64,000 bases of DNA from Cyanidioschyzon merolae (taxonomy: Eukaryota), in the NCBI GenBank assembly GCA_000091205.1, contig AP006485.2. One strand, given 5' to 3'. Every line of letters begins with the position of its first letter. Positions within the stretch are counted from its first letter, which is position 1. A program made the position numbers and the translations under genes. This document shows, in pieces, positions 428 through 64,000 of the stretch. The notes beneath the pieces were generated by a model. It made no database searches, was not told the origin of the DNA, and saw only the letters and a program-made list of their open reading frames with translations.

Positions 428-1546
428 GTGCTAGCGCAGCTGGGATGCATGACGAGCGACAAGTTCGCTTTGCCCCGACGTCTTCTGGTCTACTGTGACT
501 CATTGGCCCGACGGCAGCGACTCCTGGAGACGCATTCAGCGACACTGGTGCGTTTACGGGATGCGGGCTATCTGGTGCAGTTGCCGCAAGGCTGGAAACC
601 GGAAACCACCGCTGACTCGACCTCGGGCGTTGCGAGCGGAAACGTCACCGCTTTCGCAGTGCACTCCTTCTTCGTCGAGCTGGAACGCTATCGACATCAA
701 CAGCAACCAGGTGCTGCCTGGGTCGGACATACGCTCGTCCACGCACCTCTGCTCGAGTCGACGCAAGACCTGATACGATCTTTTGCGTTTCCCGACGGCA
801 CGGTTGTCGTGGCAGATCGTCAAGTTTCGGGTCGAGGGCGGCGTGGTGCGACCTGGGACTCGCCCGGTGGAAGTCTCGCGTTTTCGTTGCAACTGGAGCT
901 GCAGAATGGGTGCGATCAACCCGTGCAGTTCATTCAGTATATCGCTGGACTTGCGTTAGCGGAAAGCATTCCCAATGAAAGTCCCGAGGCCGAGCAGGAG
1001 GCAGCGCGAGCGTTGCATATCAAGTGGCCGAATGATCTCCTTGTGGACGGTCTGAAAGTCGCCGGTATCCTGTGTGAGTCGAGCGTGTTTCGTGATCGCT
1101 TCACCGTCTACGTTGGTATTGGCGTGAACGTTGCCAATGCTGCTCCAACTGCTGCGTTGGCGCAGTTTTCATGGGCAAGTGCTTTGACGCGAGAGCGGTT
1201 GCTTGCGCGTTTTCTGGTAAGGTTTGAACGCTTCCTGACTATATTTCTTGATAAGGGCTGGGTGGCATCGGGTCTTGGGGCTCGCTATACTGCCAGGTGG
1301 TTACATCAGCGACAGCTCGTGCTGCTCGCGGAGACGAACCAGCGCGGGCGAATCATAGGTCTGAGTCAACAGGGCTGTTTGCTCGTTGAACTGGACCCGT
1401 TGTCTGGAGAACGTGGTCGCTCTGGGGCATCTGCCATCGCTGGTCAGGCACAGTGCGAAGCAGGGACATGTTCCCAGTATATTGAAGTGGAGCCAGATGT
1501 CTCCAGTTTTGACTGGCAGCGTGGAATCGTGCAACGCAAGCAATGA
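428..1546 (+). CDS. biotin--protein ligase (holocarboxylase synthetase), catalytic and C-terminal part; the 5' part of the gene is probably upstream of or outside the window
   Basis: 372-aa ORF with a BirA-type biotin-binding loop (QVSGRGRRGATWDSPGGSLAFSL) and the IKWPNDLLVDGLK motif of the BPL/LPL catalytic domain. Eukaryotic BPLs are much longer, so N-terminal exons are expected before nt 428. Confidence 0.7.
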   Translation: MLAQLGCMTSDKFALPRRLLVYCDSLARRQRLLETHSATLVRLRDAGYLVQLPQGWKPETTADSTSGVASGNVTAFAVHSFFVELERYRHQQQPGAAWVGHTLVHAPLLESTQDLIRSFAFPDGTVVVADRQVSGRGRRGATWDSPGGSLAFSLQLELQNGCDQPVQFIQYIAGLALAESIPNESPEAEQEAARALHIKWPNDLLVDGLKVAGILCESSVFRDRFTVYVGIGVNVANAAPTAALAQFSWASALTRERLLARFLVRFERFLTIFLDKGWVASGLGARYTARWLHQRQLVLLAETNQRGRIIGLSQQGCLLVELDPLSGERGRSGASAIAGQAQCEAGTCSQYIEVEPDVSSFDWQRGIVQRKQ

Positions 1547-10930: not shown

Positions 10931-11498
10931 AATACGTCAGCGTTGGAAAAGACCTGATTTCGGAAACAGATAAGAGAAGCAGAACCTTCGCATATGTTTC
11001 GCAGGCCGATGATGTATCAGCGTTGGCAAAAAGACCTGATTTCGGAAACAGATAAGAGAAGCAGAACCTTCGCATATGTTTCGCAGGCCGATGATGTATC
11101 AGCGTTGGCAAAAAGACCTGATTTCGGAAACAGATAAGAGAAGCAGAACCTTCGCATATGTTTCGCAGGCCGATGATGTATCAGCGTTGGCAAAAAGACC
11201 TGATTTCGGAAACAGATAAGAGAAGCAGAACCTTCGCATATGTTTCGCAGGCCGATGATGTATCAGCGTTGGCAAAAAGACCTGATTTCGGAAACAGATA
11301 AGAGAAGCAGAACCTTCGCATATGTTTCGCAGGCCGATGATGTATCAGCGTTGGCAAAAAGACCTGATTTCGGAAACAGATAAGAGAAGCAGAACCTTCG
11401 CATATGTTTCGCAGGCCGATGATGTATCAGCGTTGGCAAAAAGACCTGATTTCGGAAACAGATAAGAGAAGCAGAACCTTCGCATATGTTTCGCAGGC
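10931..11498. repeat. minisatellite: 82-bp unit x ~6.9, head-to-tail, ~450 bp upstream of the GluRS start
   Basis: Unit atgatgtatcagcgttggcaaaaagacctgatttcggaaacagataagagaagcagaaccttcgcatatgtttcgcaggccg recurs with a period of 82 (e.g. agaaccttcg at 10981 and 11063). Only the first copy is degenerate. The ORFs called inside it on the minus strand are periodic artefacts. Confidence 0.95.
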
Positions 11499-19160: not shown

Positions 19161-19306
19161 GCATCCCGACTAGTCGCGGGACCTGTACGGGTGTCGATGG
19201 TATTTCAGGCATCCTACGCACCGGAATGTGTCGTTTTCAACATGGACGCACACGCTATATTTTGGATGTCTTCTCACTGTTTTGGACATGAGCCGTTGTG
19301 GCCTCT

Positions 19307-20056
19307 TTACGACAGTGTCCTTTTCCTATCTCTCATCTGAGGCTCGGCATTCGCCAGTTTATCGCATCCCTCTACCGCTATCTTCAACAGTCGCTGGATA
19401 TTGATGGCTGCGTTAAAGTCTCGATTTCGCTGCTTGGGGCATTTCTCGAAACCTATGATGTCGAGATGGTCGTTGCGATCAACGCTTCGCGTGACATGCT
19501 CATCTTGTTTGCATACGGTATCAGAGAACGCTGAGCGACCGTGACTCAGATGTCTAGCGGGGTCTTGCTTTACGACCAGCAGGTATGCTTCTCCGAGAAT
19601 CGCATTGTGGTACGTGAACGCCTGCTTCATGATTCGTTCCTTGCTCTTGACGGGCACAGGAGGTTCCATTCGTTTTCTATTTTCGTTTCCGTTTCTGGTG
19701 CCGTACCCTAGGGTCATTTTTTGTCTAGGCGATCCCGTTTACGAGAACTCTGTTTGGTATGCACGCAAGCGGGCGTTACTCCACTCGTTTGAGGATTCTT
19801 GGAACGAGATGCTGTCCGTGATGAAACAAGTTCTGGAACTACGATCCAGAACGGAGATCAAGTTGTGAATTTTCCATTCCTCTACGCTTTCTTCGTCGAA
19901 AGCGGTAACGCATTCACCACTGGAAGCGATCGCTGCGACGGCTGATTTCCGAATGCAACAGCCTTTGCCATGCAAACAGAAGAGACGTGAGCTTCTGCGG
20001 ACATATCTCGTGAGAGCCCTCATGCCGGTGACCAGGTTGGATTCGCAGGCGGCCAC
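19307..20056 (-). mobile_element. decayed TnpB/Fanzor-like (RuvC-type transposon nuclease) gene fragment, copy A; the upstream extent is uncertain
   Basis: The minus-strand ORF 19307-19717 ends ...VCKQDEHVTRSVDRNDHLDIIGFEKCPKQRNRDFNAAINIQRLL. The RuvC-III signature RDFNAAINI is encoded at 19397-19423, with its nucleotides near-identical to copy D. The next minus-strand ORF fragment (19739-20056) has RLFCLHGKGCC..., which resembles RLVIACGAGRW... upstream of copy D. The frames are broken. Confidence 0.55.
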
Positions 20057-20173
20057 AATGGGCGTTGGATTCGCCTTTCAAACGGAAACGATCGTTTCGT
20101 TGTGACTGGTGCAGAGAGGCCTCGGCATGAGCTTACGATCAAGTCACCAACGGCTGACGTCGACTATTTTTCG

Positions 20174-20692
20174 TCATCCATCCATCCATCCAGCCGTGCG
20201 AATCGCTGCGACCACGAGTCGCCTTGGAACACACAAGATCGAGGCATTGAAAAAGGCATGATTTGAGCGTGCTCCATATAAGGGATGGGGAAGTATGGCT
20301 GCTTGTACGCATGAATTGGATAATGACAGGGGCTTTTTTACGAACGCTTCTTCGACGGCGTGGCGAATGCTCTGGATTTCAGTGACTCGACGATTCCCAG
20401 CCACGGAGCGTTGAAGTGGCCACTCAGAAAAGATGACCAAGAATCCTGTAAAAACTCGCGAATATCCGAGCCTTTGTTGCTGCACTTTGAATATCGAGGC
20501 TGGGAATCTATAATAAACTCCGGAGAATCCAAAGACGGGAACAGCGTAACCAGTGCCGTCTTCGATTTCCATCGAGATCGATGAGACTTTTTTTTCTGTC
20601 CGATAGGCCCAAACTAGCGTCGCTGGAATCTGCGGGCTGTCTGAACAACCAGCGATGAATCCCCTCTGATGACGGATACCATTCGGATCCAA
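20174..20692 (-). CDS. hypothetical protein (172 aa) diverging from MRPL53; it could instead be further 5' debris of Fanzor-like copy A
   Basis: The ORF alone; I recognise no motif. It is head-to-head with the 20929 gene. Confidence 0.25.
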   Translation of the reverse strand: MDPNGIRHQRGFIAGCSDSPQIPATLVWAYRTEKKVSSISMEIEDGTGYAVPVFGFSGVYYRFPASIFKVQQQRLGYSRVFTGFLVIFSEWPLQRSVAGNRRVTEIQSIRHAVEEAFVKKPLSLSNSCVQAAILPHPLYGARSNHAFFNASILCVPRRLVVAAIRTAGWMDG

Positions 20693-26431: not shown

Positions 26432-26779
26432 TCATCTTGCCTTACGCTGCGCGCCTTCTTGGGTATAGAGACGCCTGCTGCACCCCCGTGCCAGGGCCAT
26501 ATGGAACGCTCGTAATTGCGTTACGCGGGCGTACACCATCAAGTTTCGGTTTCTGGCTACGCTCATCAACACCAGCATTTGCGGGTTCTTTTTCTCATTC
26601 TGCTTCCCTCTCCTTCCTCTAGTCGCCGGCTTGGAATACGCCGACGTCTTCGGTTCCTGTAAAATCGTCGCCAGCAGTCGACAGATGTTGATGGCAGTGT
26701 TCGTGTCTCGATGTCGCAGCCTTCTGCTGCTGTTCACGCATTTCATGCACAGGCTGGAGTTGCGATAGAGGCATTGCAT
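26432..26779 (-). mobile_element. decayed TnpB/Fanzor-like gene fragment, copy E (Zn-finger half + RuvC-III)
   Basis: Minus-strand ORF MQCLYRNSSLCMKCVNSSRRLRHRDTNTAINICRLLATI... A CxxC (CMKC) lies 10 aa before RDTNTAINI, which is encoded at 26684-26710 (rc cgagacacgaacactgccatcaacatc). This is the canonical C-terminal architecture of TnpB/Cas12/Fanzor RuvC-III. Confidence 0.55.
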
Positions 26780-27973
26780 GGCATTTTCATTTTAGTTGTG
26801 CTCAGACTTGGAGCGCTCTTGGCATCAGTGGCACTTGACGTGGCTAAAGTGTTTCCCCATGCCCAGCCAAAATTCTTCATCCGTGGACTTCGCTCGGGCC
26901 TGCTTGATCGCTGCATACATACCCGTTCAGGGGTACAGTGGGGCCCCGCCTCAATACCCCGTTCCGTTTTCGAGTCCGCTGCAGTACCGCACCGTTTCGT
27001 AAGATCACTGGCTTCCTCTGACAAATACCCGCGTTGAATACGCTGTACGCTGCAAACGCAAACGCACGCTGTTCCATTCGATAGCGCATTTGTGGAATGC
27101 GGTGTTCTTCACGCGGAAGCAATGCCCCGAAGCAGAATCTAGGCTGGAGATCAGGTCTTGGAATTTCGATTCGTCAACGCTCCCGTCGTGCAAAGGAGTG
27201 ATGCACGCTCGATTGGAAGCGATTGCTGGGATGAATCTAGTCCGATTCCGTTACTCCTTTCGATGTGAACAGAAGATACGGGGGCCCCTGTGAGCGTGCT
27301 CCATGAGCGCTGTTATGCTGGTAGCGCATGCCGTTTCGTCAACGGCCACAACCACAGGAGGATTTTTCATTCGAACGGATTCGATTATTTGGAGTGAGGA
27401 TTTCAGTCAGCTTTTGGGGCTCGGCCTGTGAACATTTCGTCAACGGACCAAGTCGTGTATTTTTCCTCGACAAGACAACAGCTCGAATGGCTGTTCGCAT
27501 GAGTTGCCTCGAAGTAGAACGATCGAAAACTTGGAGGTTGCTTGATTTGAGCATACTGCACGAAAGAAAACGAGAACACAAAACACTTGTACACAGGCAT
27601 TGGATAATGTCATCGGTTATTTTAGAAACCCTTGTTCGCCGGCGTCGCGATTCATCTTGATTCCGGTGGCGTACCGAATGCCATCGGCACACCGTGGAAG
27701 GCACCAATCAGGAAAAACGACCGAGAATCCTAGAACTACACATGAATCCGTGATCCCTACTTGCTGCGCTTCGAATGTTGAGTCTGCTTATCTAACAAGT
27801 TCAGAAAAATAATCCAAAGGCGGTAACGGAGCGAGCACTTCAGGGTCCCATTTTCATCTGACACAGGCGTAGAGCGTCCCCGGCAATCAACATTCCCATC
27901 AGAGCGCTTACGCGAAGCCCTCTCGTCGTTTCACATTCAGCTGTATCAGACAAAAGCGCTCGTGCGACGACCG

Positions 27974-30633: not shown

Positions 30634-33600
30634 GCTGCTTACAGCGGCACGCCTCGCGGTTTCCTATGCCTCTCGCGGTACTCTCGAGGCAGCGGCTGCA
30701 GCGCAACGAACCCGCACCCTGCAACCTACGTGTACGCTGGTGAGTACGGCACACCGGTGCTTCACCAGAACCTATCGCTTTTGGCGTGCTAGCATGCAGT
30801 CCGACAGCCGACGAGCGTTCTACGCCGAGCGGTGTTTCCCGGAACACTAGTATTAGCACGCTCTTTTCTGTTTCTGTTTGTTGGTGTTCGCAGGTACACC
30901 GCGAACAGATTGTACGCCACGAACCGGCAAAAAGTTCCGTAAAAATTTAACGATATCATTGGAAGTTGGCCGTTGCCGCATTACTTGTACAAGGCAGTTA
31001 TTCTGCGGTCAGTAGATAGGTGGAATACCCAACTTGTCGTGACCCGTGGAGAATTTCGTCCACCAAAGCCAGAACATATCGAGTTCTATTGTCACGAATG
31101 TCGCCTCGTCCATTGATTCCACTCCATACGTTCTTGAAGAACTATCAGCAAAGAGGCCACAGGATGTGAAGCCTCCGTACCAACAGTACGAACTGAATTG
31201 AAGAGACAAGGCTGGGCACAGGAAACCAGATGCTTCAGTGTGAGTCCGTCACGCTCGGAACCGTACACCGTCGAGTGCGTACTTCATTGTGAACCCTAAC
31301 GACAGAAGCGACAGCTGATGATCTCATCGCAAGAACATGCATCCAGTGGAAACGGTAGAACAGTGTATGGGTTGTCGAAGAGGGCCAAACCGCCGTTTTG
31401 CAACAGAGGGACGAGGAAGTGTTCCGAAAACATCAGCGTTTGGAGCGAGTTTTTCGTGTGCTCTCCCATGATTCGCCAGAAGAGGTGAATCGTTCAGCAC
31501 CACAGCCTTTGTCGACAAAGTACGCATCGTGGCTCTATCGTCACCGATTTCTCGGACCTGCTGATTGGCAACATCGCTTTCCATCGCCTAAAACCGATCA
31601 AAGCGTGCCCGACTGAGACTGGTGCTAAGCTGCTCACCGGTCTAGCCTGTTCTGCTTATGTCAACCCAGTCAAATGCGTCTCCTCTATTGTCGAGCGCAT
31701 TTTTCACCCGCACCTAACAGTGAACGAGTCGTTTGCATGCGTGAAACCGGAAGCTACAGGACGACATTAAAAGTCGCGTTGCTTCTTCTTCGAATAAGGC
31801 TCGCTCAGCTTCTTTCGCCTTGACGCATCTTGCCCAGCAATTATTCGTTTAAATTACGGGCGCACGGTTGCAAGCTGGGTACATCCCTCTAAAATTTTCG
31901 ACCAAATCCACGTGAGGCAACTGATGATCTGGAGAGGAAATCCAACACTGCCTGATTGAAGGATCCTGGATTTGCGCAAACGACAACCCGAGTTTCCTGA
32001 TGGATCGCTGCGACCCGTCGGCGATGGTAACATCTACATCCCCAACGCCTACGAGTACCAAACCATCCTCAAAAAGCATCTATGCGTCAAACAAGGGCGC
32101 TGCATGGGCACTGTATCCGTAGTGGCCTCAACGCATCGACCAAGAGGCTTGTGCGTCAATAAAAAGGAATTTCTGGTGAGTCGCTGAAGGCGAGCGGCGG
32201 GCTGGTGATGGAAGCGCTCGACGTGCTAGCGAGTCCCGATGAGATATTGCAACGAGAGCGGCATTCACCTCGTATCGTCTAGGCTCGTGGTGTTGCTGTG
32301 GGCTTGGCATCGACGCGTGTCGTACACATGGGATATTTGAAACGTAGTGCCTGAATTCCTCGCATCTTGCGCCTCTCTGTTTCCCTGAACAGAGGTCTGC
32401 AGAACGATGCATATGATTTCCCCAAACCCGGGCGTCCAAGTCTGCTCAAACGCTGATTCGATGTGCTTCCCACGTATCGTAACAAGTCCTATGGTGTAAA
32501 CGAATACATTGGTGTACTGGAATGTATGGCCTGTTCAGTGAGCGACGGCTGATCGCTGAAGGCAAATCCGAAGTACTCGAACGGCTTCACGAAGCGCATT
32601 GTCCGAGGCCGGTAAAGATTTCTCGTTTACAAGGAGAAAACGGATAGAAATCTGCATAGAGCATGCACGCCTACAGCATATGCATCTATGTGTACTTTGC
32701 GAGACCTAGGCATGAGTTGCGCGGAATGGACTAATTTGCAATCGTTCAAAGCAAATGAGAAGAAGGATTTTGTGGTGAGCATGGCTCTCGTGCCGACAAA
32801 CATCATGGCCGACGTCGTCCAGCTAAATCAAGGCTCGGGTGACCAAGGCCTGAATGGAAAGCACATGAAGCAGTTCAAAGATTCTGAAGCTCGTTATCAT
32901 TCGAAATCGAGCACGGTGGAAGCCACGAGACTTTCCAGCAAGTGGAGCAATGGCACCAGGACCCATCTCGAAGCCCAGAGTATCATATCGCACAGAGACG
33001 GATGCTTCGTACTCGTCATTCAGAGCGTGCACGGGTGCTCAAGTGGCTCATACACACAATGTTTGGCGGGAGTACATGCGCTCGCTCTTCGGTCGCCAAC
33101 TGTTTCGACTATACCAAGACGACAATCGCGCTTTCGCCAGGTTTCTTAACGATTTCTAAAGAAGATACAGCTGAATATTCGGGTCGTTTAATGATGCCCT
33201 AGGGCGTTGAACGGGCTAGGTCGCGCAAACCCTGAACCCCTGCTCCTTCGACGAAATCGAGCACCGAGCGCAGGAAGCGGTTCTGCAGGATTCTCGTCGA
33301 TGAAGTCCGGATGACGTTCACGGAACACGTGCACAAGTACATCTTGAAGCTGGCTCAGAAAGAGATCCTGAAGCAGAGCCCCATGCACGTATTATTGTAC
33401 GGTACGCTCATCAAACGTCTGACGGGGCGTCGATCGAAGGCACGCGTGTTGCCATGGATTCATATTATCAGCAGAAATGCGCAGAAGCACTTTCAGCACA
33501 GAGACGAGAACATCTCGATCAGCACTTGGGAATATCTCGGTCTTGCACAGCGCCAACCAGTTTCGTCGAGCGAATTTCCATGGGAATCGAATAGGACACC

Positions 33601-40366: not shown

Positions 40367-41059
40367 GCATCCGAGCACATGAACTTGGAAGTCGGAGGTT
40401 TGATGGATCGTTTACCGCGCACTGAAAAAAAAAGTAAGAAGAGAAAAAGCGCACAATCGGATAACGCTGGACAAAGTAAACGTTTATTCAGTGAACGTAA
40501 AAGCATCCGTGCGCATGAACTTGGAAGTCGGAGGTTTGATGGATCGTTTACCGCGCACTGAAAAAAAAGTAAGAAGAGAAAAAGCGCACAATCGGATAAC
40601 GCTGGACAAAGTAAACGATTATTCAGTGAACGTAAAAGCATCCGAGCACATGAACTTGGAAGTCGGAGGTTTGATGGATCGTTTACCGCGCACTGAAAAA
40701 AAAAGTAAGAAGAGAAAAAGCGCACAATCGGATAACGCTGGACAAAGTAAACGATTATTCAGTGAACGTAAAAGCATCCGAGCACATGAACTTGGAAGTC
40801 GGAGGTTTGATGGATCGTTTACCGCGCACTGAAAAAAAGTAAGAAGAGAAAAAGCGCACAGTCGGATAACGCTGGACAAAGTAAACGTTTATTCAGTGAA
40901 AGTAAAAGCATCCGTGTGCATGAACTTGGAAGTCGGAGGTTTGATGGATCGTTTACCGCGCACTGAAAAAAAAAGTAAGAAGAGAAAAAGCGCACAATCG
41001 GATAACGCTGGACAAAGTAAACGATTATTCAGTGAACGTAAAAGCATCCGTGTGCATGC
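40367..41059. repeat. minisatellite: ~135-bp unit x ~5.1, head-to-tail. It sits immediately 5' of, and co-oriented with, Fanzor-like relic copy B.
   Basis: Unit ...gcatccgagcacatgaacttggaagtcggaggtttgatggatcgtttaccgcgcactgaaaaaaaaagtaagaagagaaaaagcgcacaatcggataacgctggacaaagtaaacgattattcagtgaacgtaaaa recurs with period 135-136 (gaacttgg at 40381, 40517, 40652, 40787, 40922). Each unit has an A8-9 tract and an imperfect inverted repeat (cagtgaacgtaaa / tttaccgcgcactg). The ORFs on both strands across it are periodicity artefacts (135 = 45 codons). Confidence 0.95.
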
Positions 41060-41271: not shown

Positions 41272-41547
41272 GTGATCATCGAGCGAAGAAGGGCACCTGA
41301 CGCAGACGAACGCGAGGAACAGGTGCGTTCAACCAGCGACAACGAACGTGTGGAGCTCGTGATCCGACACTTTAACGTCGTCATCAATAGCAGGAGATGT
41401 ATGGCGTTGAAGACAAGACCCGAGGAGCTGTGGCCAGCGAAATCTGTGGGGCAATCTTTCGGGCTTGACGTGTGTAGCGAGAAACCAAAGCCGATAGCAG
41501 TCGATCGGTCAAAAAAGACTGGTAGGCGTCTGTGCCTGGGTATCTAG
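41272..41547 (+). mobile_element. decayed TnpB/Fanzor-like gene fragment, copy B (RuvC-III region; catalytic Asp mutated)
   Basis: ORF ...VELVIRHFNVVINSRRCMALKTRPEEL...KTGRRLCLGI. RHFNVVINS (41365-41391) aligns to RDFNAAINT of copy D, and 41330-41420 is ~75% nt identical to 61270-61360 and to 52770-52860. The D->H change means it is inactive. Confidence 0.5.
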
Positions 41548-43709
41548 TTACACTCCCGCGTTGCGGAACATGTTCGGTACTAGTGAACTGCGTAGATGCA
41601 GAGGAAGGAAACACGTCGATTCATGCCAGATGGTCCGCAGGGCACGAGGCGCCTCAGCGAGCGACGGAGCACACTCCTTTCAAATACGTATCGCTTTTGC
41701 CGTGGATGTCAATTGTCTTTCCATGGACTTTTCGCAAACCAATCAGCCATGCACGTGCGCTGTGCTCGTTTCCAATTAAAATGAGAGACTGGACATCGCG
41801 CCCTGTTCCTGGTTTGAGCGTTTGCCGGACTTTTTGTTCAGAAGTGCAGACTCGACATTCGAAGTTGAACAACAGGAAATGATGGATTCATATCCGGTGT
41901 TACGATTCTCGGTCGTGTTGTCGACGTTGCTCGACTGTCTCTCTCTCTCTCTCCATCTCTCTCGCTGGAATTCTTCACGTCACCGGTATCAGGATGATTT
42001 CCGACGATCTCGAAAGGCGGTTTCGCAAGATAACCGCTCTCATGATGCAATGCGCATGCCCATGCATCCATACTCGTCCTTTCCTTACATGTACTGCAGC
42101 AAAATCGCGCATGCCTCAAGTTTCCAATCCTTGTTTCTCAAGATATCTCGGGTGCGTAGCCGTGCGAGCGCCTGGATTGAGGACCAAAACTACTCCGTGT
42201 TGTCCCTTGACGACCTGTTCACAAGCTCATGCCAAAACTTTGTTGAACTCGTTATCTCAAATAATCAATTCTGTTCCAAAGACAAACCCTCGATGCCTTT
42301 ACGTCATCCCAGGACCATCATTCTGCAGCAGCACGATACCTCTACCAGGTAATGCTCCCAGAGAGACCTATCTCTTGTGTTTGCCTGGGAAAGCTACTTG
42401 GACTCGAATCTGCGTCATCGCATCGATCGCTTCCAAAGGAACGCTTGTCACCGCTGTGCACGAAGCGAACGTACATGGATCGAAAGTCCCCGACTTTGCT
42501 TTCCAGTCTGGATTTAGCTTCCCATAGATGCTTCATCATGGACAACATCACGTGCCGCAAATTATCCATCGCATGCGAAAGCGAGCACTCGCGTGTGCAG
42601 CTGACGAAGTACACTCCCGGCGGATCGCTCGGGCCAGGCCCATGATCACAGGGCATGGTGCTGGACACGGAAACATAGGAGAGCATCGAGGTGAGCTTTC
42701 TGTACCTGTCAAGAGCGTCTGCGTTGTTCTGCAGAAAGCGTGCACACGCAGCAGACCGGCGTTCGGAGTAGGATGAGGTGCTGTGGACCTCACGAGATAT
42801 TTGACCACAATTGATAGTCTCCGCTGCGAACAGCGCACTGCGGATGTACATACAAAGTAGATCAATGTGGCAAGCGAACCGTATATCGCAACTGCTATCC
42901 GTGCATGAACGACGCTGCCAAGAAAAGCAAGATAGCAAATCATGACGTGAACGCTCCCACGAGCATCCTACAACTGCTGAAACCAGAGGCGACGGAAAAA
43001 GTAGAGAGCCGCGCATTTAAGGCTGGAAACAAGAGATAAGCAGGGGAAGCAGTCACAGAAAAATTCCGCAAAGCCCGGTACTGATGACTGCGAAAAGCGA
43101 CCAGCGTTTCTCTAGATACGCCCGAGTCAGGCAAGTGCACCCGTTCCGGTGTATTCTCCTGACACGGGTGCAATTGCCGACCCGCGGCGGTGAACCTCGC
43201 AAACACATTCCTCCGTCGGACACGTTCACGCAGTCGAGGGGCTCTCGCTCGCCAGCCATCACTCTGCGAAAGTTTTGGTGATGCAGAAAGCGCTCCCAGT
43301 TACGAAACACTGCAACCACCGCGCAGACTCTGGTAACTGTGCGTCGGTCTGTTCCCGCTTATGACGCGCAAATGGCAAGGCCGTGCTCCTCCGAAACGCA
43401 ACTCGTCGTCGTGTCTCCACCTGCACGTTGGACCTCGTTTCCCAATGTTTTTCTCTGCAATTTCGGGGATGCTCACCAACCTGTCCCGGTCTGCGTCACC
43501 CTGCCGGGCTACCACGAGATACTAGGGCACATTCCGTTGGCCATTGACGTCCGCACAACCACCGGGAAGGTGCGATCGGTTCCCGCCTTGTCGTCTACGC
43601 TTCCGCTCTTTGATAGGCTCTTTTCGCCGTGCATCCTTGCAAATCGTCTTTCAGGCTTTCTATGCGGTCACACTGACGAGCGCGCCTGCCGACGTTCGGT
43701 AATCCTCGT

Positions 43710-48494: not shown

Positions 48495-51400
48495 AAAGCA
48501 CCGCTCATCATGCTATTGCATCACGATTCTGCTTCTTTGAATCCGGTGGAATCGGGGCTTTTTAGTAGCTCGTGCATCCTGTTTTGGTGTTGCTGTTGCT
48601 GTTGCTCCTGGGATTCTAGCTATGTCTTCGGCGCTGTAATGACTGGTTCGTGAACGGAGAACAAATGGAGTGAGCATTCGAATGACCCGAGCACATTCCC
48701 TTTCCGACAATTGGCATTGCAGGTCCTGTGAAATTTTCCACATGTGCCACTGGTCTGAAGCTATCACGTGATGCGTGAAGGCGGGACCTCGTCAACGACA
48801 TGCGAGCGTCCTTTGGGTGAATACCCGCTGATACCGCTCAGGCGTTTGCGTGTCGTGCGACTGCCAGTTATGCGGTATTCCCTGCAGCCGTGACTGCTTC
48901 TGGTACAACGCCAACAGCTGGTTCTGCCTGCGCTGTCGTTGGTCACGTCTACCATGAATGCTTGTTCACTAACTGCCCGTTCATATGCGCGTCATGCTGG
49001 AGCAACCGCCAGAGCTAGCCCTAACGTTGCTCGCGTTCGCCATGAATACTGCTTAATCACCGTTGCGTTCACTAGGACATACTGCACTAGTTACCAGCAG
49101 TGCTGCGTTGGCTGTCGCTTGCTTCCACCGCTACTTCTGCTTCAGCTTCTTCGCAATCGAGTTTGCATAGTACAGCAGCGACCGCGGGCGCTGCCCCTGC
49201 TCTCGCGAGCGTCGAGCGTGGCTGCGCTATGGGCATGTTCGCGTTCGGATGCGCGTAGTATAGCTACATCTTCTGTTGCATGCCAAACGTCGCACGGCGT
49301 CCCAGCTTCCAAAGCAACTGATACGTGATGTTTAGGAAGCATCTGGTTGGGGTACGCGTCGAACTTCGATTGCCGTATCCGTACGCTTCGTCGGCGCAGA
49401 CACAATGCGCTCCCACGGCGTCTCCGTTTTCATGGACTTCTTCTCGTTCGCCCGGGTAATGCTGCATCCTGCATAAATATGCTTGTGCCTCTGAAACTCC
49501 TAGTGCAGTCGTAGAAAATCCGGGTCAGCATGGTGTAGCATCCCCGACATCCTACAGACAACAACGAAGCACTTCATGGAGGTCTTTCTGAACCACGAAT
49601 AACGGAGTAAATGCGTCTCATGCATCCTCAGAGGATCAAGAGCATCTCCAAACAAACGTCTGGCGCTGCGCGACGTCCATCGAAGAACTCCTGCCATACG
49701 GCAAACTACACAAAAGTATGCCGATCACATCCTTCGTATTACTTTCCAGGAATCATATTCGAACGAACCCTCTAATATCTGTCGTACGATATCGGGGCTT
49801 GATGCCCGCATCGCGAGATTCTGAAGAGAAGCGAGCGCGTTGCGAGCGCACCACGGAAACAGCGCGACGGGACACGTCACCGGACAGATTATTCCATTTA
49901 TGTCGCATATCTGATATTTGCAGCACGATGCATGACGCCTGCACGCAGCGCGATTCCCGCCTGAGACACGTGTCTGGATATCCCTTCTGGCGGCAGATCG
50001 ATTTCTCTAACAGGATTCTCACCGATGCGTCGTTGCTTTCACTTACCTGGAAAATAAGCCAACGATCTTATGCATCCGGCAACACAGATCACTTCATGTA
50101 CAGAAGTTCCATCAGTGATAGAGGTTGGATTGAGATCCACGATCCTGTCTGGGTGCGGGTACCCAGCGCAGGTGCTTGTTACGACACTGGATGCGCAATC
50201 ATCGCCCCCGTCATTGCCGGTTGGAAACCGTTCGACGAGCTATTGCCTTGGCGGGAGGCGGCTCATGGTACGTGCGTTGAATGCGCTGGTGCCTCATCTA
50301 CTCCATGTCAGAATAAATTGGAACAGGTCCCCTATCTCGGGCGTACGCGCCCATGTTCAGATCTCTCCCAATTGTCATGAATACCCAGCTTTGGAAGCAT
50401 TTTCGGCGCCTGCTCCCTCATCCACGCTCTTGTCTCTGGCCTTGCATATGCCGGTCTTCCATGTCGACAGTGCTGTTGCAAGCAGTCAAGGGATGTAGGT
50501 GAAAGCGTACGAGGCCCAATTTCGCCGCCTTAGGTTGTTGTCCGAGCATACCTTGGAGAGGCGGAGGTTGCAATGTACGGATCCTTTGTGTATATACGGC
50601 ATCTGTGCGCCCTTCGCACCAGTGACACTTGGCCGTGGTCATGCGTTCGTGACTCTCGACCGCATGTTCTTCTCTGAAGCACGCCCTGTTGCGTGGTACG
50701 GCTCCAGAAGGCTCCCTTGGATGCAGTCCTGCGTTTGGGCACTTGGCTTGGCACCCCGTGATCCTAGGCTTTCACCGGGATCTCCATCCGGCGAGCTCAC
50801 TGTCCGCTGCACGCGCAAGCGCACGCTGTTCCATTTATGATGGGTTTTCGGACCTCGATTTTGTCCATAATGGCACCAGTACCGTAGGGAATATCCAGGT
50901 AGGAGAACAAGTCGAGCACTGTCGAACGGTATACGCTCTGTTCTTGCAACGCGATACTGCACCCTGCACTGGGTGAGATCGCTGTGATGACACAAGTCCG
51001 AGTCCAGGATGCTTTTCGACATTAACGGACTAGACGACAGCATCTGGGACATGTCCCGCGAGAAGCATCATGCTGGTGCTGTCGAAAGCCATGTTGTGGA
51101 TAGCCAAAAATGTAGAGGTGGATACGCCATTCGAACAATGCCTTGAAAAAAAGGTAACTTGAAGAATGCGTGATTTGAGCGATCTACAAGTTAGTAAAGA
51201 AGAGTACTGGGTGCTTGTATGTATGGATTCGATCATGATTTGGGTCATTTGGAGAACTCTTGTTCGAGGATGTCACGAATCGTCTTCATTCCGGTTTCAT
51301 CATTAATCCTAGAGGCAGGACTTCGATATGGCTTCTCTAAAAACTCCAACGCGAATCCTGAACCAACGTGCAAATCCGTAGGCTCTTTTAGCAGCACGTC

Positions 51401-51934
51401 GAGAATCGAGATTGCATACAGAGAAAGTTCGGATATCGCCAAAAAACCAGGAAAGGAGCAAGTGTTCAAGCGCTCTCTCATATTCTGACTGATGTATTGC
51501 ATGTCTCCCGAGGCGCACTCAACGCCTGTCGGTTCACCGTCGAAATGGAATGTGTTTGTAGAGTTATGCAAGCTCTCCCGGTGATGCACATGATTTGGCC
51601 CTCATGCCCGCCTCTGGTCTTTCAACTCAGTATTGTTTCACCCCTGCTGTGGTGTATGGCAGGCGATCGAAATCCCGATGCAAAGCACTGGAGAGATCGT
51701 GGACGAACTGCCTGTAGGATATGTATTCTTCATTGAACAGTTCAAGGAGGAATGCATTCCTGCTTCCAGTCGGTCATACCGTAGTTCTCAGATAGTTGGC
51801 GAGCGACGACAGAAATAAGCTTAGAGGATCCGCCCCAAAACTGGTATTGACAAAGACTGCCTGCAGTCGATGGTAGATAACGACCCGTTGATCACGTTAC
51901 GGAAAGCAAAAGCGACTCTAGCAGACACATCGGC

Positions 51935-53028
51935 ATGTCTGTGTGTCAACAGCTAGTTGGTGCCGTCCTGAAATCGCTCGGATACCGTCGCAAAAACAGA
52001 GTCCTAGTTCATTCACGGCCATCTTCCATTGAAGTCGCAACGACAGCCTTCTTCCTGGAACGTCGCGATCGGTATGATCCAAAAAGACGTCGGTTCGTTT
52101 TTCCACTCGATGAGACATGTTACGGAAGAAACGGTCAGAGCGTATATGTGTGTTCGCAGAAATGTCCCGTAGTGTGCACTATCGAGCTCGAAGAGATCTA
52201 TGACATCATCATCTGATCTAGCTGCAGTGGATTCCATTTGCGGCCTCAGTTCTTTTCTCTCGTAGAGAAGGCTCATACAACAGCACCCTCTTTTTGTCGA
52301 GTCATCGAAGACTGTTCCCCTGGTGTCTGGCGACGTCCTCCTATTAAAGGACATGTTATTTCACTATTCGCGTTACGGTCGAGCTGTTGCAGACTGTATT
52401 GGTTAGAGCTGGTTTCATTCCTCCGTACTCTGCGTCGTTCAATTCCGTCGAAGGAGCGTTTTCCATCGTGAGACGTAATGATCGTTTCACTGAGCGAATT
52501 GATGAAGCATTCAGCACACGGTGACATACCGGGGCTTTTTTTCTTTCTGCCTCAATTGCTGCTCGATGCGGGAAGGTCCTTATCTCTGGCTATAAACAAG
52601 TGCGTTCATTTTCGAAAACCACTAAGAGATGAGCTTGGATATATACTCTAGGACGTCGAGTTGTAGAGAGAGGGATGCGCAGGGCTTCTGCGATAGACTA
52701 ATACGGAGAGCTGGCAGAGCACCAAGTTCCAATGAGGACGCGAGTTCGAGGAATCCCTGCACTGGTGAGAACAACAAGACGCATCAAACGCATGGAGGTT
52801 ATGAAGCGAAACTTCGATGCCACCGTCAACGTCAGACGATGCTTGGTGCTGAAGACGATACCCGAGGAGCTGACGCGATCTACCCCTGTGGGATGGCGTC
52901 TCAGGCTCGAAATTTGCAAGGAGAAACTGAAACAGATAGCAGACGGCGGGTCAATCAAAACCGGGAGGCGTCTGCGGGCCGGTATCAATTTACCTTCCAT
53001 GCTCGTGGGACATTTTTTGTTTCACTGA
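51935..53028 (+). mobile_element. decayed TnpB/Fanzor-like gene, copy C (degenerate RuvC-I-like and RuvC-III segments ~800 nt apart)
   Basis: ORF 51935-52216 has RVLVHSRPSSIEVATTAF (51998-52051), which aligns to the RuvC-I-like DFVVGADPTNTNIVTVAV of copy D with the Asp lost. ORF 52732-53028 has IKRMEVMKRNFDATVNVRRCLVLKTIPEELTR (motif at 52804-52833), which aligns to GKQRMEFVNRDFNAAINTRRCAVMERRPPELTR of copy D. The 3' 200 nt are ~75% identical to copy B. Confidence 0.5.
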
Positions 53029-53569
53029 CATGCAAAGTCACCGTTAGCTAGCAGGCGCTATGCATCAGTAGCTATAGACATGCAGGGGCTACTCCTAAGA
53101 AAGTTCTGGCGCCGAAGATCCAACTTGCAGTCTATTGCGTACCAGTGCAGAGGCCACACGATGACCAGAGTCTTCTGTTACGCCGAGGCTGACGATCATC
53201 GTGTTTTATATTGCAAATACCTTTGAGCCGGTTCCAACGGACGAACTTGACACAAACTCGATAGGCGCCGCTGCATACACTGATTCGTCGAGAGCCCCGT
53301 GAGGCGCGTTCCTCACGAGCCAGCATTGCGGCAGGTTTCGTCCAGAGCGTCCACCATCAAACTCTATCACTGACCATGAAGACGGGCTTACATAAGTTCA
53401 TCGATACCTCGTTTTCTCAAGCTACGGAAGGAACAAGCTGGAAACGAAAGCGTAACGGTTCGAGGTCAGCGCATGCCCGGCAGTGAACACTTCCCAGCAA
53501 GCAGCGAACACAGCGACGCGTTCAGGCAACGTCTGCGACAGGTCTTGAAGAAAACGGTACCGATCGATG

Positions 53570-58304: not shown

Positions 58305-59504
58305 AGAAAGGCAAGAAGAGCGTTGTTTCTAGGCAAACGTAGTGCTGAACGTCGACGGCAGACCGGATTGGTTTGGCGATTTCTCACACAATCACGAAAC
58401 GTTTCCATGAACCGTAGACCCCAGAATGCGGGATGGATGGGTATTGGTAATCGAAAAAAAGTGCACATCATGCTACTGCACCAAGTTCTATTATTCATAC
58501 TTGCTTTCGAATGTGCTGGTCGTTTCGTATGTTCTATCGCGCGCCGAGTGCCTGCTGTGAGCAGCCGCCTTAGCGCCTAGACCGCTGGAACAGATGCATC
58601 ATGGAGACAAGACGGCTTTGCCGTACCAGTGAGGGCGTCGGATCGAGGAACGCTTCACCTGATACGGAGCCGGAGTACATGGTCATTCTGGGCGCTTGCA
58701 AGCTGCGCAGACAGAACGACTGCCTGCAGAAGCTCGAAGCGATATGCTAGGAGTCTACTGCGACCAGCGCGATGCTCAGAAGCAGCCGAACCGCCGCTAG
58801 TCCCAGAATGAAGTGTGTTGCGGACGAGCTGCTCAGATCTCATTACAACATCCTCCACTTTAGAGGCACACGGAGCATGAGCCACGCAGACTCGTCCGGC
58901 TTGCGGGACCTTCCGCCTGTATGGTAAAATTTTCGAAATGCGGATAGCGCTCCCCCATGCAACGTTTACCATATAGAGGAGAAGAACCTGTCCTATCGTT
59001 GTTATTTAATGGTTCGTTTCTGTTCATGGTTCTGTATAGCATATTCGATACGCGCACCTCCATGTCTGGCAGGCATGAGATGCGGCGCGCGTTTCGCAGT
59101 GGAAGAGAAACGCGATCCTCATCGTTATCATGTTGCTCTAAAGTACAAGGTGTCTTTGCGTTGCAGTCGTACCGAACCATAGATTTCAATTCAGTTGTTT
59201 TTCAACCCTCAAGCAAGTATATTCAAGTGATTTCTCGCGGTTTATAGCTGAAGCGTTCAACGTGTGTTCATTTTCAAAAAATAAAAAAGGGAAGTTAGCG
59301 AAAAGCAAGTTGAGGATCCCGAAGGGCTTGTGCCGCCGGCTGCCAGAAGAATAAAAAGCATGGCGGAGCAAAGAGCAACAGGAAAAGACGAAGAAGCAAG
59401 AGAAGGAGGCCCTACGCCAAAGGCTGCAAGAAAGACGACACTGCGACGGAATGGTGCTGGAAGCCTGTCTTCTTGGACATATTAATGATCCATACTAGGA
59501 AAAG

Positions 59505-61410
59505 TTGCGAGAGGCCATCAGAAACCGGACCGAGTCGTTCTCCAGGAGGATTATAAAGTCTTCGTCAGGGCTAATGCATTTGGTGAAGGATATGTACGAA
59601 GACGTGACGGACATCAAAAAAGTCGAGATTGCAGAAGAATTTTGCGACCAGGCCTTTATTCCTCACCTGATGCTTGGCACCGGGGAAACGTCGACGAAAA
59701 ATGAGCGAGTGTATGCCTTCCATGAAAATCACTCCGAATTCCGCTTCGACGGTACTCGACACATGCCTGACTCGAATATTTACACGTACGGAGCAATGGA
59801 GGGCCTCACGAACCTGAAGAACCATATGATCGTGAACCTCGAACGTTTCATGATACGCACCATGTTTGCGCTGAACCCCGGCCTTTCTCGCCAGTGGATA
59901 CGGGCCATCATCAATGGCATCAAGAACGCTCGCCAGAATGGACAGGAGATCGAATTCGTCGACAAAAAGACATCACACAGGAGCATGAATAATGCTTCTG
60001 TAATTCGTGCGGCTATTCAAGAGCATCGTGCGGTCTTGGGGCTTGTCAAATCCAGCTTAAACGGTATCAGATATGAAAAGAAAATGAAGAGAAACGGTAT
60101 ACCCTCGTACTGTAGTATTCCGTGTTTCTGAACAGAGACCTCGAACGCAAGGCGGAGATCGAGCAGAGTGTGAGGAGAAAAATGAAGAGTCAGCGAAACG
60201 GAACGCTGCCCTAATGGGTAAGCGCTTCAATGTCGTTCCGCTATGCAACATCGAGTCAAATGTTGTGACAGTTGGCCCGCTACGTACTTTACAGCAAAAT
60301 GAAGGAGATCTATCCGGACTTCGATGTAAGCAGCAACGAGTTTACGGGCGAAAACCGGGAGACGTACTGGGTGAATATGTTCGATTTCAAACGTCTGAAA
60401 ACGAGCAAACAAAAGTTATTTACTGAGGTGATCGAAGCCGATGGAGCAGCCGTGTGTGTACACGATCGGCGCTTGAAAGTGGATCGTCCCATTGCATCTT
60501 CATGCTTCGCCGTCGGCGAGGCATAAAGAAAAAGAGGAGGCGGATCCTGCGACGCATGCGGTGCAGGATAAAGACTTTGTTGTTGGCGCGGACCCTACGA
60601 ACACGAATATTGTTACCGTCGCTGTACCCAAACATGCGGAAGATGGTATCAACGGCAACTTCAGAAACACATGCGTCTGTTGAGGCTCTCAAGAGCTAGA
60701 GGTTACCGAGAATGCGGTATAATGAATGCGAGGAAAAAAATTGAGAAGTGGAATGCAGGAATGAAGGATCGCCTGGAAGCTATGAGGGAGGTGACGAGCC
60801 GAGAAGCGGGCTTTGAAGCTTTTATGAAATTCATGGAAGTTCGCGTGGCTCACTGGGAGGCGCTGTGGAAAGAGAATACAAAGCCCCAGTGGGCTCGTCT
60901 ACGTATGAACCTGTACCGTAACAAGTAGCATGCATTCGCGAATTTTTTCAATGAGTTGAGTGCCCTGAAGGAGGACGAGAGACAGAGGCTCGTAATAGCA
61001 TGCGGAGCAGGGCGCTGGAAGACCCAAAAAAGCGAGTGGACCAGCTCCAACGACGATGGTGTACAAGTAGTGCGCAACGCGTTTCATTACGATACCTGTA
61101 GATGAGTTTCGAGCATCGTATACGCACCATGAACTGGGATGCACACTTCAGAGAGTGGAGATGGAAAAGTGTCAGAGAAGACCTTGGGATACAGAGAAGT
61201 GCGGAGAGCTGACAGAGCAGCAAACGTAAAGAACGGCGAAAGTTCGTGGACTCCATGCATTAGTAAGTACAACCAACGGCAAGCAACGTATGGAGTTTGT
61301 GAATCGCGACTTTAACGCAGCAATCAATACCAGGAGATGTGCGGTGATGGAAAGAAGACCTCCGGAGTTGACAAGAGAGAATTTTATGGACAACCTTCTA
61401 CGATGGAATT
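59505..61410 (+). mobile_element. most complete decayed TnpB/Fanzor-like gene, copy D (RuvC-I-like, Cys-rich, RuvC-III segments in order, interrupted by stops and frameshifts); the 5' boundary is uncertain
   Basis: An AT-richer block carries + strand fragments. DFVVGADPTNTNIVTVAV (60573-60626) is a RuvC-I-type G-x-D-P/L-G/T...A motif. ...RLVIACGAGRWKTQKSEW... follows. HHELGCTLQRVEMEKCQRRPWDTEKCGEL (about 61125-61211) runs to the stop at 61227. Then comes GKQRMEFVNRDFNAAINTRRCAVMERRPPELTR with RDFNAAINT at 61305-61331. The RuvC-I to RuvC-III spacing of ~730 nt is as expected for TnpB-like nucleases. Confidence 0.55.
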
Positions 61411-61584
61411 AGATGAGGAAAGTTGAAACCAGTAGTAGGTGGCCGGTCGAGAAAAACCGACAAGGCGTCTGCACGTCGCCCTAAAGGCTTCCACGCTATC
61501 GGCGTGACGTATGTGCGTTCGTATACCCGTTTTCCGGGTGGCAGTTCCCGCGCACAACGTTTCGCTTGTAGCGCCGCGACTCGA

Positions 61585-62247: not shown

Positions 62248-63331
62248 ATCGAGGCTCGGGATGGATACGGCTTTGGGAGTTGAGCACTTCTGCCTCCGCA
62301 AGCTGCCGTTCACGCGCGACTTGACATGGTTCGACGGCGCTGCTTGCTCACGCGTTCAACGAAGCGCGACTCGAATGATCGTGCAGGTCGCGGTCATGGT
62401 CTGTCGCGTTCCCTAAACATTTAAAAGGACGTGACGCATTGCCCTGTCGTGAATATGCTGTCCCAATGGTCTGCTCTAGGTCTATCTGTCGGCATGTCTC
62501 TCTTGCTACGAATACGGATTCGTCCTTGAGGCATCGCACGTGCGTCGCTTGAGACCCGAAGCCATTGAATGCAAGAGCAATATCCCTATCTTTTCAGTAG
62601 GCTTCTAGAACTGCAGAAAAAACTCGCGTCCGATACGATGGATTGGGCGGAGCGGTTGCAAATCCTCGAAAGCGGAAGACTTTCGTGTCCAGTGCAACAA
62701 TCCTGTGATGGTGGACGCGTTCATCCCAGGCCGCTGCTTTCACACCATTGTCCTGAATTTTCCATGTTCATGTTCAACTCCTGTTCAACTTAAAATCTCT
62801 TTGAAACTCCCCAATCAACGCTGAACCCTTGATGCTCCGTGATGGAGACCACGGATTCGCTCTACTCAAGGCAGCAACGACCGACATGGAAGTGAGCGCA
62901 GCCAGCGCAGTCGCCACTGCACCAGAATGTCGGATAGCGTTCACAAATCGCCAGGCTGTCGCTCTGCCCGAAACCGATACGGCACTTGCGCGTGCACCAG
63001 GTCCGCGACGCCTGGAATCGATTTTTTTTTCATTGACAAAACGTTTCCATTGGCCAGCGTTCTCCGATTATGCGCATTTTCCTTTTCTTACTTTTTTGTG
63101 TTATTTTTTCAGTGCACTGTGAAGTATCTATCAAACACCCTACCTCCATGTTCCATTACCTATACTTCGTCTCGGATATTCTGGACGTTTCATACGTCCT
63201 ATCGTGCGTGGGATCGATGCTGTGCATCCGCGGCTCGCCCGCGAATGAAGCGCGATCACGACGCGCGCATCTCATGTCCGTTTTGATCAAACGGCTATAT
63301 ATATCAGATTTGACGAATTTTCGGTGGCATT

Positions 63332-63424
63332 GCGGACGTGTCCGAGTGGTTAAGGAGAACGATTAGAAAGCGCCTAGATATCGTTTGGGCTCTGCCCGCA
63401 CAGGTTCGAATCCTGTCGTCCGCG
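63332..63424 (+). tRNA. tRNA-Ser (anticodon AGA at 63365-63367) with an 11-nt intron (63369-63379) one nt 3' of the anticodon; long variable arm
   Basis: GCGGACG-TG-TCC-GAGTGGTTAA-GGA-G-AACGA-TTAGAA[agcgcctagat]A-TCGTT-TGGGCTCTGCCCGC-ACAGG-TTCGAAT-CCTGT-CGTCCGC-G. The 7-bp acceptor stem pairs perfectly. The type-II D-loop AGTGGTTAAGG and the T-loop GGTTCGAATCC are identical to eukaryotic tRNA-Ser. The discriminator is G, and no CCA is encoded. Confidence 0.85.
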
Positions 63425-63437: not shown

Positions 63438-64000
63438 ATTCGATACGTGTATCTGCCCTTCTTGTACAAAACAAATCAGCGGATGAAACGCGTATGGCAG
63501 GCATGCACCAATCGGGGTACCGCCCGGCGCTAGGCATCAAAAAGGACTCGAGCGGGGCCTCGCGGCGGACGAGCTCGCCGAGCGCGACACCCGCTGCTGG
63601 ATGCAGCGCTCCGAAGCTGCAGCAGCGCACGAATACGCTGTCTGTATTCGGTAGGCATGGAATATTGTACCGCTCAGATGGTTTCTGCTTTTCGACTTTT
63701 TCCGCTCTTTGCCACAGATGCACAGCGTCGACGTTGAACGCGCTGCTCTTCTGGCTTACGGATTCATTCATTGTTTGGGATTCTCGGTCGTTTATTTTCT
63801 CGGAGTCGCTCTGCTGCCCTTGGCTGGAGGGATTCCTTACGTTACCGGAACCGAGATGAATCGTTACGTCCTCGAACAAGGATCTGGATACATAACCGAT
63901 ATCATGATGCAGTCCATGAGTACGATTGCGGACTCTTCTGCTTGACTCGTGTAGAGCACGTCCAAATCACGAATGCTTCAGCATTTCTATCTCTCTGGCT

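Follow-up and report, generated by a model that had tools for sequence, protein, structure and literature searches.

Fanzor relics in the window

The 64-kb stretch of DNA analysed here (the window) carries decayed genes for Fanzors, transposon-borne eukaryotic homologues of TnpB, which are DNA endonucleases guided by an omega-RNA that extends from the 3' end of the element into its flank (PMC10530073 and PDB entry descriptions). The window has a G+C content of ~0.54, and its open reading frames (ORFs) are long, nearly intron-free and of housekeeping type, among them glutamine/glutamate-tRNA-ligase-like, aminopeptidase P and anthranilate phosphoribosyltransferase genes and others. Because the ORF at 34421-36379 matches the cytoplasmic aminopeptidase P of Cyanidioschyzon merolae 10D (BAM79029.1 / XP_005535315.1) residue for residue, the window can be assigned to the nuclear DNA of this red alga, and the same ORF places it in the host of the published Fanzor1 family CMe-1A. 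Besides one older Fanzor1 copy, at least three families of elements occur in the window, and all of its Fanzor copies are dead, non-functional relics.

The original prediction had recognised five loci, A to E, each encoding a nine-residue RuvC-III motif, and had read them as one dispersed family of TnpB/Fanzor-like nuclease genes. All five peptides translate as given, although the span predicted for copy C (52804-52833) comprises ten codons (KRNFDATVNV), of which the nine-residue motif occupies 52807-52833. As had been said, the catalytic Asp is lost in B (RHF...) and C (RNF...) and kept in A, D and E. We compared the six-frame translation of the window with 200 first-order Markov simulations. 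A loose pattern fitting all five motifs was found 5 times in the window and 0 times in the simulations, and the strict form RD.N[AT]A[IV]N 3 times and 0 times, respectively; the motif is therefore not a product of chance. The core of the prediction, namely eukaryotic, transposon-borne, decayed TnpB/Fanzor-like RuvC nuclease genes, is supported: a profile of 49 relatives matches solved Fanzor1 proteins, and copy D shares 83.8% identity with CMe-1A.

The single family of five copies did not survive the analysis. The loci divide among at least three element families and an older copy, and the count rises with a sixth decayed Fanzor1 copy at 31745-33565 and four further repeats of the A/E type. 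The 70-90% nucleotide identity reported around the motif applies to some pairs inside the 27-nt core (56-89% in pairwise comparisons of A to E) but not elsewhere. With 45 nt added on each side, B, C and D are 62-68% identical to one another and A and E 58%, while A/E against B/C/D gives 50-54%, which is background. Likewise, upstream homology over several hundred nucleotides exists within groups (about 1.3 kb for A-E, about 230 nt for D-C and about 95-210 nt for D-B) but not between them. At the nucleotide level, B, C and D align together beyond the nine residues, as do A and E, but between the two sets identity falls to background.

Copy D is a full-length CMe-1A insertion

Bao and Jurka (2013, Mobile DNA 4:12; PMC3627910) described a single Fanzor1 family in C. 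merolae, CMe-1A, with about 150 copies that are about 80% identical to a 3169-bp consensus and some of which are still intact. The element has no inverted repeats and its target duplication was given as undetermined; it encodes a 734-amino-acid single-exon Fanzor1, shares its first 635 bp with TE-N2_CMe, and was listed as unclassified with respect to transposon class. Its protein, CMe-1, belongs to the founding Fanzor1 set (PMC3627910). Using the consensus in Additional file 2 of that paper, we placed the features of copy D as follows.

58391-61477, plus strand: copy D, full-length dead CMe-1A (blastn and pairwise alignment to the published consensus, 83.8%)
59297-61477, plus strand: 734-codon Fanzor1 ORF remnant of copy D (alignment to the CMe-1A consensus)
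60585-60599, plus strand: RuvC-I block G-A-D-P-T; Asp codon 60591-60593, corresponding to invariant D484 of the family alignment
61092-61121, plus strand: I-P-V-D-E-F-R-A-S-Y with the rearranged RuvC Glu; Glu codon 61104-61106, corresponding to invariant E656
61305-61331, plus strand: RuvC-III motif RDFNAAINT; Asp codon 61308-61310

Copy D covers consensus positions 3-3089 in 3087 bp, with 2573 matches and 496 mismatches. The interval of 59505-61410 proposed for it is thus only part of the element. Its 83.8% identity fits the reported ~80%, its first ~630 bp are the part common to CMe-1A and TE-N2_CMe, and like CMe-1A it has a 734-codon single-exon ORF and no inverted repeats. It differs from CMe-1A in lacking the last ~80 bp of the consensus, terminal hairpin included, and in its dead ORF, which has lost the start codon and contains 13 frameshifting indels and 5 internal stops, in agreement with the prediction that it is broken. 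When projected on the consensus frame, the ORF is 72% identical in amino acids to CMe-1. Copy D retains the catalytic set (the Asp of RuvC-I, a relocated Glu within V-D-E-F-R-x-S, and R-D-x-N-A-A-x-N of RuvC-III); the RuvC-I block lies where it had been noticed, at an Asp-to-Asp codon distance of 717 nt. We regard copy D as a complete but dead CMe-1A insertion, from which, since the frame is destroyed, no protein would be made.

None of the other copies is about 80% identical to CMe-1A over the whole element. Copy B is 68% identical over 213 bp and copy C 67% over 286 bp; A aligns over 29 bp and E not at all, so that A and E are not members. A blastn search of the window with copy D at E<=1e-5 gave no second copy, and further copies are visible only by short words, tblastx or profiles. 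The finding of a Fanzor family is real but already known: the family, taken in the prediction to be unannotated, was described for the same species in the founding Fanzor paper in 2013, which also reported the intact members that had been thought possible elsewhere in the genome.

The CMe-1 clade among Fanzor1 nucleases

A stitched translation of copy D has 67 homologues among metagenome and genome proteins, the best being a 752-amino-acid protein (E=7e-223). As single sequences had no Pfam or PDB match, membership was shown by profiles. Profile A1, built from eight relatives, matches SpuFz1 (8GKH) with E=9e-5, and profile A4, built from 49 diverse relatives, matches PpFz1 (2.4e-23), SpuFz1 (1.7e-21) and GtFz1 (3e-14) in PDB. 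An exhaustive HMMER search gave 3370 cluster representatives at E<=1e-3, mostly of 600-700 amino acids; a second protein search, started from the alignment, brought in few new types, since its list of candidates was taken up by close relatives. For the closest intact relative an AlphaFold2 model was compared with known structures by Foldseek, and all 7 matches with E <= 0.001 were Fanzor1 (6e-12 to 1e-8), the next match having 0.33.

In Fanzors the RuvC site is rearranged, the Glu being shifted downstream by ~35-45 residues relative to the canonical RuvC-II position (PMC10530073). The 49-sequence A4 alignment has this arrangement: D484, E656 (in V-D-E-F-R-T-S) and R724-D725-N727 are invariant, A-Y-G stands at the canonical RuvC-II position, and D484, E656 and D725 make up the Fanzor1 catalytic set D...E...D with the relocated Glu. 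Copy D holds all three catalytic residues (60591, 61104, 61308) within its broken ORF.

Like the solved Fanzor1 nucleases SpuFz1 (PDB 8GKH, 9CEU and others), PpFz1 (9CF0) and GtFz1 (9CER), the proteins of the CMe-1 clade are of ~600-750 amino acids, eukaryotic and transposon-borne; the profile homology extends from REC/WED through RuvC (E 1e-14 to 1e-23), and the relocated Glu of the shared catalytic set lies in D-E-F-R-T-S. They differ in that identity to the solved proteins is only 12-16% and that the zinc ribbon is missing from the CMe-1 clade.

Several results weigh against the assignment to Fanzor1. The stitched copy D pseudo-protein had no match in Pfam or PDB, the closest intact relatives gave only sub-threshold matches in Pfam, and the precomputed annotation is DUF8286 only. 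The AlphaFold2 model has a mean pLDDT of 59, a TM of about 0.3 and a poor RuvC half, and the Fanzor1 fold match therefore rests on local similarity. In addition, a C4 zinc finger between [TS][TS] and RD was described as strictly conserved in Fanzor and TnpB (PMC3627910), and the CMe-1 clade does not have it. Across the 49 diverse members there is no CxxC...CxxC between the catalytic Glu and RuvC-III, where only one or two non-conserved Cys are left, and no match of the clade to Pfam TNB is better than E=0.2. Copies D, B and C therefore have no zinc finger, and the Cys-rich region that the prediction placed before the motif is found only in the A/E ancestor, that is, in the consensus of the family X described below (CHRC...CMKC). 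With these points set against the profile, catalytic-site and model evidence, CMe-1 as a Fanzor1 family is supported by sequence, with local similarity of the predicted fold.

The copies might also be genes of bacterial TnpB (IS200/IS605, IS607), brought in by contamination or by recent horizontal transfer. The RuvC-III motif, R/h-D-x-N-A-A-x-N-I, is common to TnpB, Cas12 and Fanzor, the weak Pfam matches are to Cas12f1-like_TNB, a TNB zinc ribbon is present in the ancestor of family X, and in both systems a guide RNA is predicted at the element's 3' end. The CMe-1 protein, however, is about twice as big as TnpB; at ~730 amino acids it is Fanzor1-sized, its Glu is rearranged, and it matched only eukaryotic Fanzor1 structures. 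No TnpA is present, the copies lie on the same DNA as the nuclear housekeeping genes of C. merolae, and the only transposase remnants found near them are of eukaryote-type DDE_3, in families X and Y; host and associated transposons are both eukaryotic. A prokaryotic TnpB is already refuted, its probability being negligible, and we continue with CMe-1 as a eukaryotic Fanzor1.

The sixth copy

A further Fanzor1 gene was found outside the five loci.

31745-33565, plus strand: sixth Fanzor1 pseudogene, strongly decayed and nearly full-length (six-frame hmmsearch, tblastx and tblastn)

It covers profile positions 37-636, scattered over three frames, and retains LVDEVRMT and HRDENISI (33500-33520); the RuvC-I Asp is lost. 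Being recognisable at the protein level only, it is older than CMe-1A or belongs to another lineage.

Family Y, with copies B and C

Copies B and C belong to a second family, which we call Y.

51611-53030, plus strand: family Y element with copy C (nhmmer, consensus and tblastn)
41316-41595, plus strand: copy B, a Y-type 3' fragment, with RHFNVVINS at 41365-41391

The repeat around copy C is ~1.42-kb long, and nhmmer found five homologous copies of ~1.4 kb in related contigs. In copy C a DDE_3 remnant (about 51825-52521) is followed by a short piece resembling the sequence before the CMe-1A ORF, by a Fanzor1 tail of the last ~117 codons (52642-52990, with RNFDATVNV at 52807-52833) and by a 3' tail of its own. 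Copy B has the last ~70 Fanzor codons plus the Y-type tail, and lies between a 136-bp array before it and copy 4 of family X after it. The Y consensus matches Pfam DDE_3 with 47.4 bits (E=2.4e-12, cut-off 28.6) and contains the motifs F-S-V-D-E-T-S-F, L-L-L-N-N-V-V-F and P-P-Y-A-P-L-F-N-S-I-E; the DDE_3 remnant of Y is more complete than that of X. Between the DDE_3 and Fanzor parts lies a 28-bp piece like the pre-ORF sequence of CMe-1A, and consensus positions 1164-1514 correspond to CMe-1A 2737-3088 (the last ~117 Fanzor codons) at 74%.

Copies B and C themselves resemble CMe-1A only in their last 210-290 bp, at 67-68%, and depart from it at about position 3084, where a tail common to the copies in related contigs begins. 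The likeness of B and C to CMe-1A is thus confined to consensus ~2737/2871-3088, at 67-74%, followed by a different tail, and they are not CMe-1A proper. The structure of Y hints that the CMe-1-type Fanzor lineage may once have been cargo of a mariner-like transposon. The Y element at 51611-53030 lies head-to-head with copy 5 of family X, with 15 bp between them.

Family X, with copies A and E

The motifs of A and E occupy the same place, close to the 3' end, in a repeat of ~1.37 kb that we call family X and that has six copies in the window.

2186-3595, plus strand: X copy 1, motif decayed to NLDLNAAII (repeat comparison)
19211-20581, minus strand: X copy 2, which is copy A, with RDFNAAINI at 19397-19423
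26486-27869, minus strand: X copy 3, which is copy E, with RDTNTAINI at 26684-26710 and the 5' inverted repeat TGTCAGATGAAAATGGGAC at 27845-27863
41763-43167, plus strand: X copy 4, directly 3' of copy B
about 50300-51596, minus strand: X copy 5, with an internal deletion and the 3' inverted repeat at 50306-50324
63561-64000, plus strand: X copy 6, truncated where the window ends (repeat comparison)

Across the window and related contigs together, nhmmer gave 56 matches of family X, and 29 of these are nearly full-length. A first consensus of 5-6 window copies gave a sub-threshold DDE_3 match and no homologues in a search of 5.8 billion proteins. A consensus of 21 distinct copies was needed for a match above the cut-off of 28.6; in one frame it reaches 41.3 bits for DDE_3 (E=1.7e-10) and covers positions 3-117 of the 146 in that profile. 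Individual X copies (A and E) gave no DDE_3 match when scanned, and in both X and Y the domain comes from the consensus only. In another frame the X consensus reads V-V-D-I-W-E-H-L-T-T-V-K-C-H-R-C...C-M-K-C...R-N-R-D-L-N-A-A-I-N-I-L-R-L-L. With 33.6 bits (E=4.5e-8) this C-terminus exceeds the curated cut-off of Pfam Cas12f1-like_TNB, and against the Fanzor1 profile it scores 43 bits over positions 504-610; a phmmer search of PDB with it gave no match. The ends of the consensus are inverted repeats of ~27-31 bp with 3 mismatches over ~31 bp (CTACACCCGTGTCAGATGAAAATGGAAC).

These data also bear on whether the nine-residue motifs might be chance peptides or belong to an unrelated protein, for example the 'DNxxxH' around the second Asp of DDE transposases. 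The similarity of A and E to B, C and D is confined to the 27-nt core, with flanks at 50-54%, and the repeat that holds A and E also yields the DDE_3 match. The second-Asp segment of the X consensus, IMDNIAFHKS, is nevertheless separate from the motif, in a different frame and about 130 codons further upstream; the RD motif stands within E-x-L-T-T-x-x-CxxC...CxxC...RDxNAAxNI, the segment with the TNB match; the alignment to Fanzor1 extends across 107 profile positions; and the motif did not occur in any of the 200 simulated sequences. Such an origin is already refuted by the Pfam TNB and Fanzor1 profile matches, and we attach hardly any probability to it. We therefore keep to a Fanzor1 origin of the motifs, with A and E as C-terminal stumps of a Fanzor1 of C4-bearing lineage within a mariner-like non-autonomous element.

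We found no description of family X in the literature searched, and a survey of MITEs (transposable elements that are miniature and bear inverted repeats) had listed no MITEs in C. merolae (PMC3964958). In the related contig L003 (3855-7590) an internally deleted CMe-1A is followed immediately by an X copy that is truncated at its 5' end, and their alignments overlap by 19 bp; in the window, copy B and X copy 4 are 168 bp apart. The adjacency of CMe-1A and X, and of B and X copy 4, may come from insertion of one element into another or from a target common to both, though the junctions differ.

Origin of families X and Y

We propose that all the motifs are relics of Fanzor1 genes that would have been transposon cargo. 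Copy D is a dead CMe-1A insertion and 31745-33565 an older, more decayed Fanzor1 insertion; A, E, B and C would be the C-terminal stumps of composite elements with a Tc1/mariner transposase and a Fanzor1, left after internal deletion. In family Y, the last ~117 codons of a Fanzor of CMe-1 type remain along with a DDE_3 remnant, and in family X the ~27-31-bp inverted repeats, a partial DDE_3 and the last ~130 codons of another Fanzor1 lineage with a C4 ribbon. We consider this explanation as a whole, with D as CMe-1A, the older sixth copy and the deletion stumps in X and Y, to be very likely.

Elements of the proposed type are known. PUl-1 of the oomycete Pythium ultimum is a two-gene element with a mariner/Tc1 transposase and a Fanzor1 (PMC3627910), and Fanzor1c is associated with Mariner/Tc1 (PMC10530073); for the Fanzor of C. 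merolae, no Tc1/mariner association was reported in the literature searched. Like PUl-1, X and Y have a DDE_3 domain of Tc1/mariner/IS630 type (41.3 bits in the X consensus and 47.4 bits in that of Y) on the strand of the Fanzor1 remnant and 5' of it; the X consensus ends in inverted repeats, mostly by TA. Unlike PUl-1, they are only about 1.4 kb long and hold only the last 117-130 Fanzor codons.

Some observations weigh against this origin. A TA adjoins the X inverted repeat in most, but not all, of the decayed copies, a search for inverted repeats in Y found none, and a tblastn search of the window for the mariner transposase of PUl-1 yielded no real match. There is also no full-length composite of transposase and Fanzor in 83 related loci. 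With no composite, no PUl-1 similarity and no Y inverted repeats, the deletion origin is inferred from the consensus sequences only; X and Y probably arose by internal deletion from elements with two genes, a transposase and a Fanzor1.

The same lack of a full composite would fit X and Y as once-functional fusion genes, in which a mariner transposase carried the zinc-ribbon/RuvC-III tail of a TnpB/Fanzor as a DNA-binding or targeting module. In both families the two parts are on the same strand, and both families were amplified to many copies. Both consensus sequences, however, have the two parts in different frames; the transposase of X breaks off at position 117 of the 146 in the profile and so does not reach the third catalytic residue; the Fanzor part begins in mid-RuvC, without RuvC-I, so that it cannot fold as a nuclease; and Y keeps a CMe-1A pre-ORF piece between the parts, as deletion within a two-gene element would leave. 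Such fusion genes seem improbable to us, and internal deletion of two-gene elements remains the preferred origin.

We also considered that X and Y might keep the Fanzor C-terminus as a selected omega-RNA, and rejected this, the segment being conserved no better than the rest (about 0.71 throughout in X; 0.74-0.77 in Y, against 0.80-0.83 elsewhere). It is simpler to assume ordinary internal deletions in which the ends of the element were kept.

The 3' terminus of intact relatives

In the window all copies are dead, and in 80 related loci retrieved by means of the protein alignment only about four distinct long ORFs are intact. The 3' ends of the relatives are conserved to the stop codon, which is followed by GGCG...CGCC, ACTACTGTACAC and a long imperfect terminal hairpin, after which the sequences diverge. 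The hairpin occurs in two variants with compensating changes (3' ends, loci L001-L083, e.g. L082:8100-8196). Folded copy by copy, it has on average 12 pairs, 21% of them G.U, and a mean z of -2.3 relative to shuffles. The minimum free energy is -17.5 kcal/mol for the sense strand and -10.9 kcal/mol for the reverse complement, the sense strand being lower in 41/41 distinct copies; this gap in stability fits a function as RNA or as single-stranded DNA of the top strand.

Against a conserved structure, RNAalifold on a MAFFT alignment of the 3' ends gave no pairs and no consensus structure; in that alignment an offset of three columns separates the two variants of the hairpin. The evidence for the hairpin consists of each copy folded singly, and the copies are related by descent. 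From these sequences, the hairpin may be the end of an omega-RNA scaffold or a signal for transposition, and intact members of the family would be expected to cut DNA under the guidance of an RNA from the element's 3' end. A candidate for the structured 3' segment that was to be looked for is present in relatives but not in the window, where the 3'-terminal motif of CMe-1A is absent and no copy has a hairpin terminus. We also considered, in view of the 3' hairpin, that CMe-1A might be Replitron- or Helitron-like, and rejected this: the Replitron paper has none in red algae, and no Rep remnant was seen.

Other features of the window

An Rfam scan of the window at gathering thresholds gave a single match, a tRNA gene at 63332-63424 (RF00005, 48 bits), which lies between a TE-N2-like fragment and X copy 6; its span of 93 nt suggests an intron. 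The TE-N2-like fragment is isolated.

63139-63208, plus strand: isolated TE-N2_CMe-like fragment, 90% identical to CMe-1A consensus 84-153 (5' region)

There are two tandem arrays. The first (10937-11498) has about 7 copies, ~99% identical, of a unit of ~82-bp. The second (40367-41058), directly 5' of fragment B, has about 5 copies, 96-97% identical, of a unit of ~136-bp. A unit related to the 136-bp array, in opposite orientation, is found at 63029-63153, beside the TE-N2-like fragment.

Implications

Since Fanzors are eukaryotic RNA-guided nucleases, a dense and undescribed family would have mattered, but CMe-1A is known and the copies in the window are dead. What we add is a corrected map of the window, which shows three families of elements, an older copy and a mariner-like repeat present six times; the chimeric families X and Y, which link Fanzor1 remnants to DDE_3 transposase remnants in C. 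merolae; the absence from the CMe-1 clade of a zinc ribbon held to be strictly conserved; and a candidate strand-specific structure at the 3' terminus of intact relatives. Of these, families X and Y, the ribbon loss in CMe-1 and the 3' hairpin are minor additions and partly inferential.

It is possible, though rather doubtful, that X and Y, together with the 3' hairpin and the clade lacking the zinc finger, are the first evidence of a Cyanidioschyzon Fanzor1 as cargo of Tc1/mariner (DDE_3) elements. If true, this would supply the transposon class of CMe-1, left 'unknown' in 2013, and there would be a Fanzor1 clade without a zinc finger, intact in thermoacidophilic red algae, whose guide RNA and target would be predictable. 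These additions could aid the reconstitution of a Fanzor1 from a thermoacidophilic alga.

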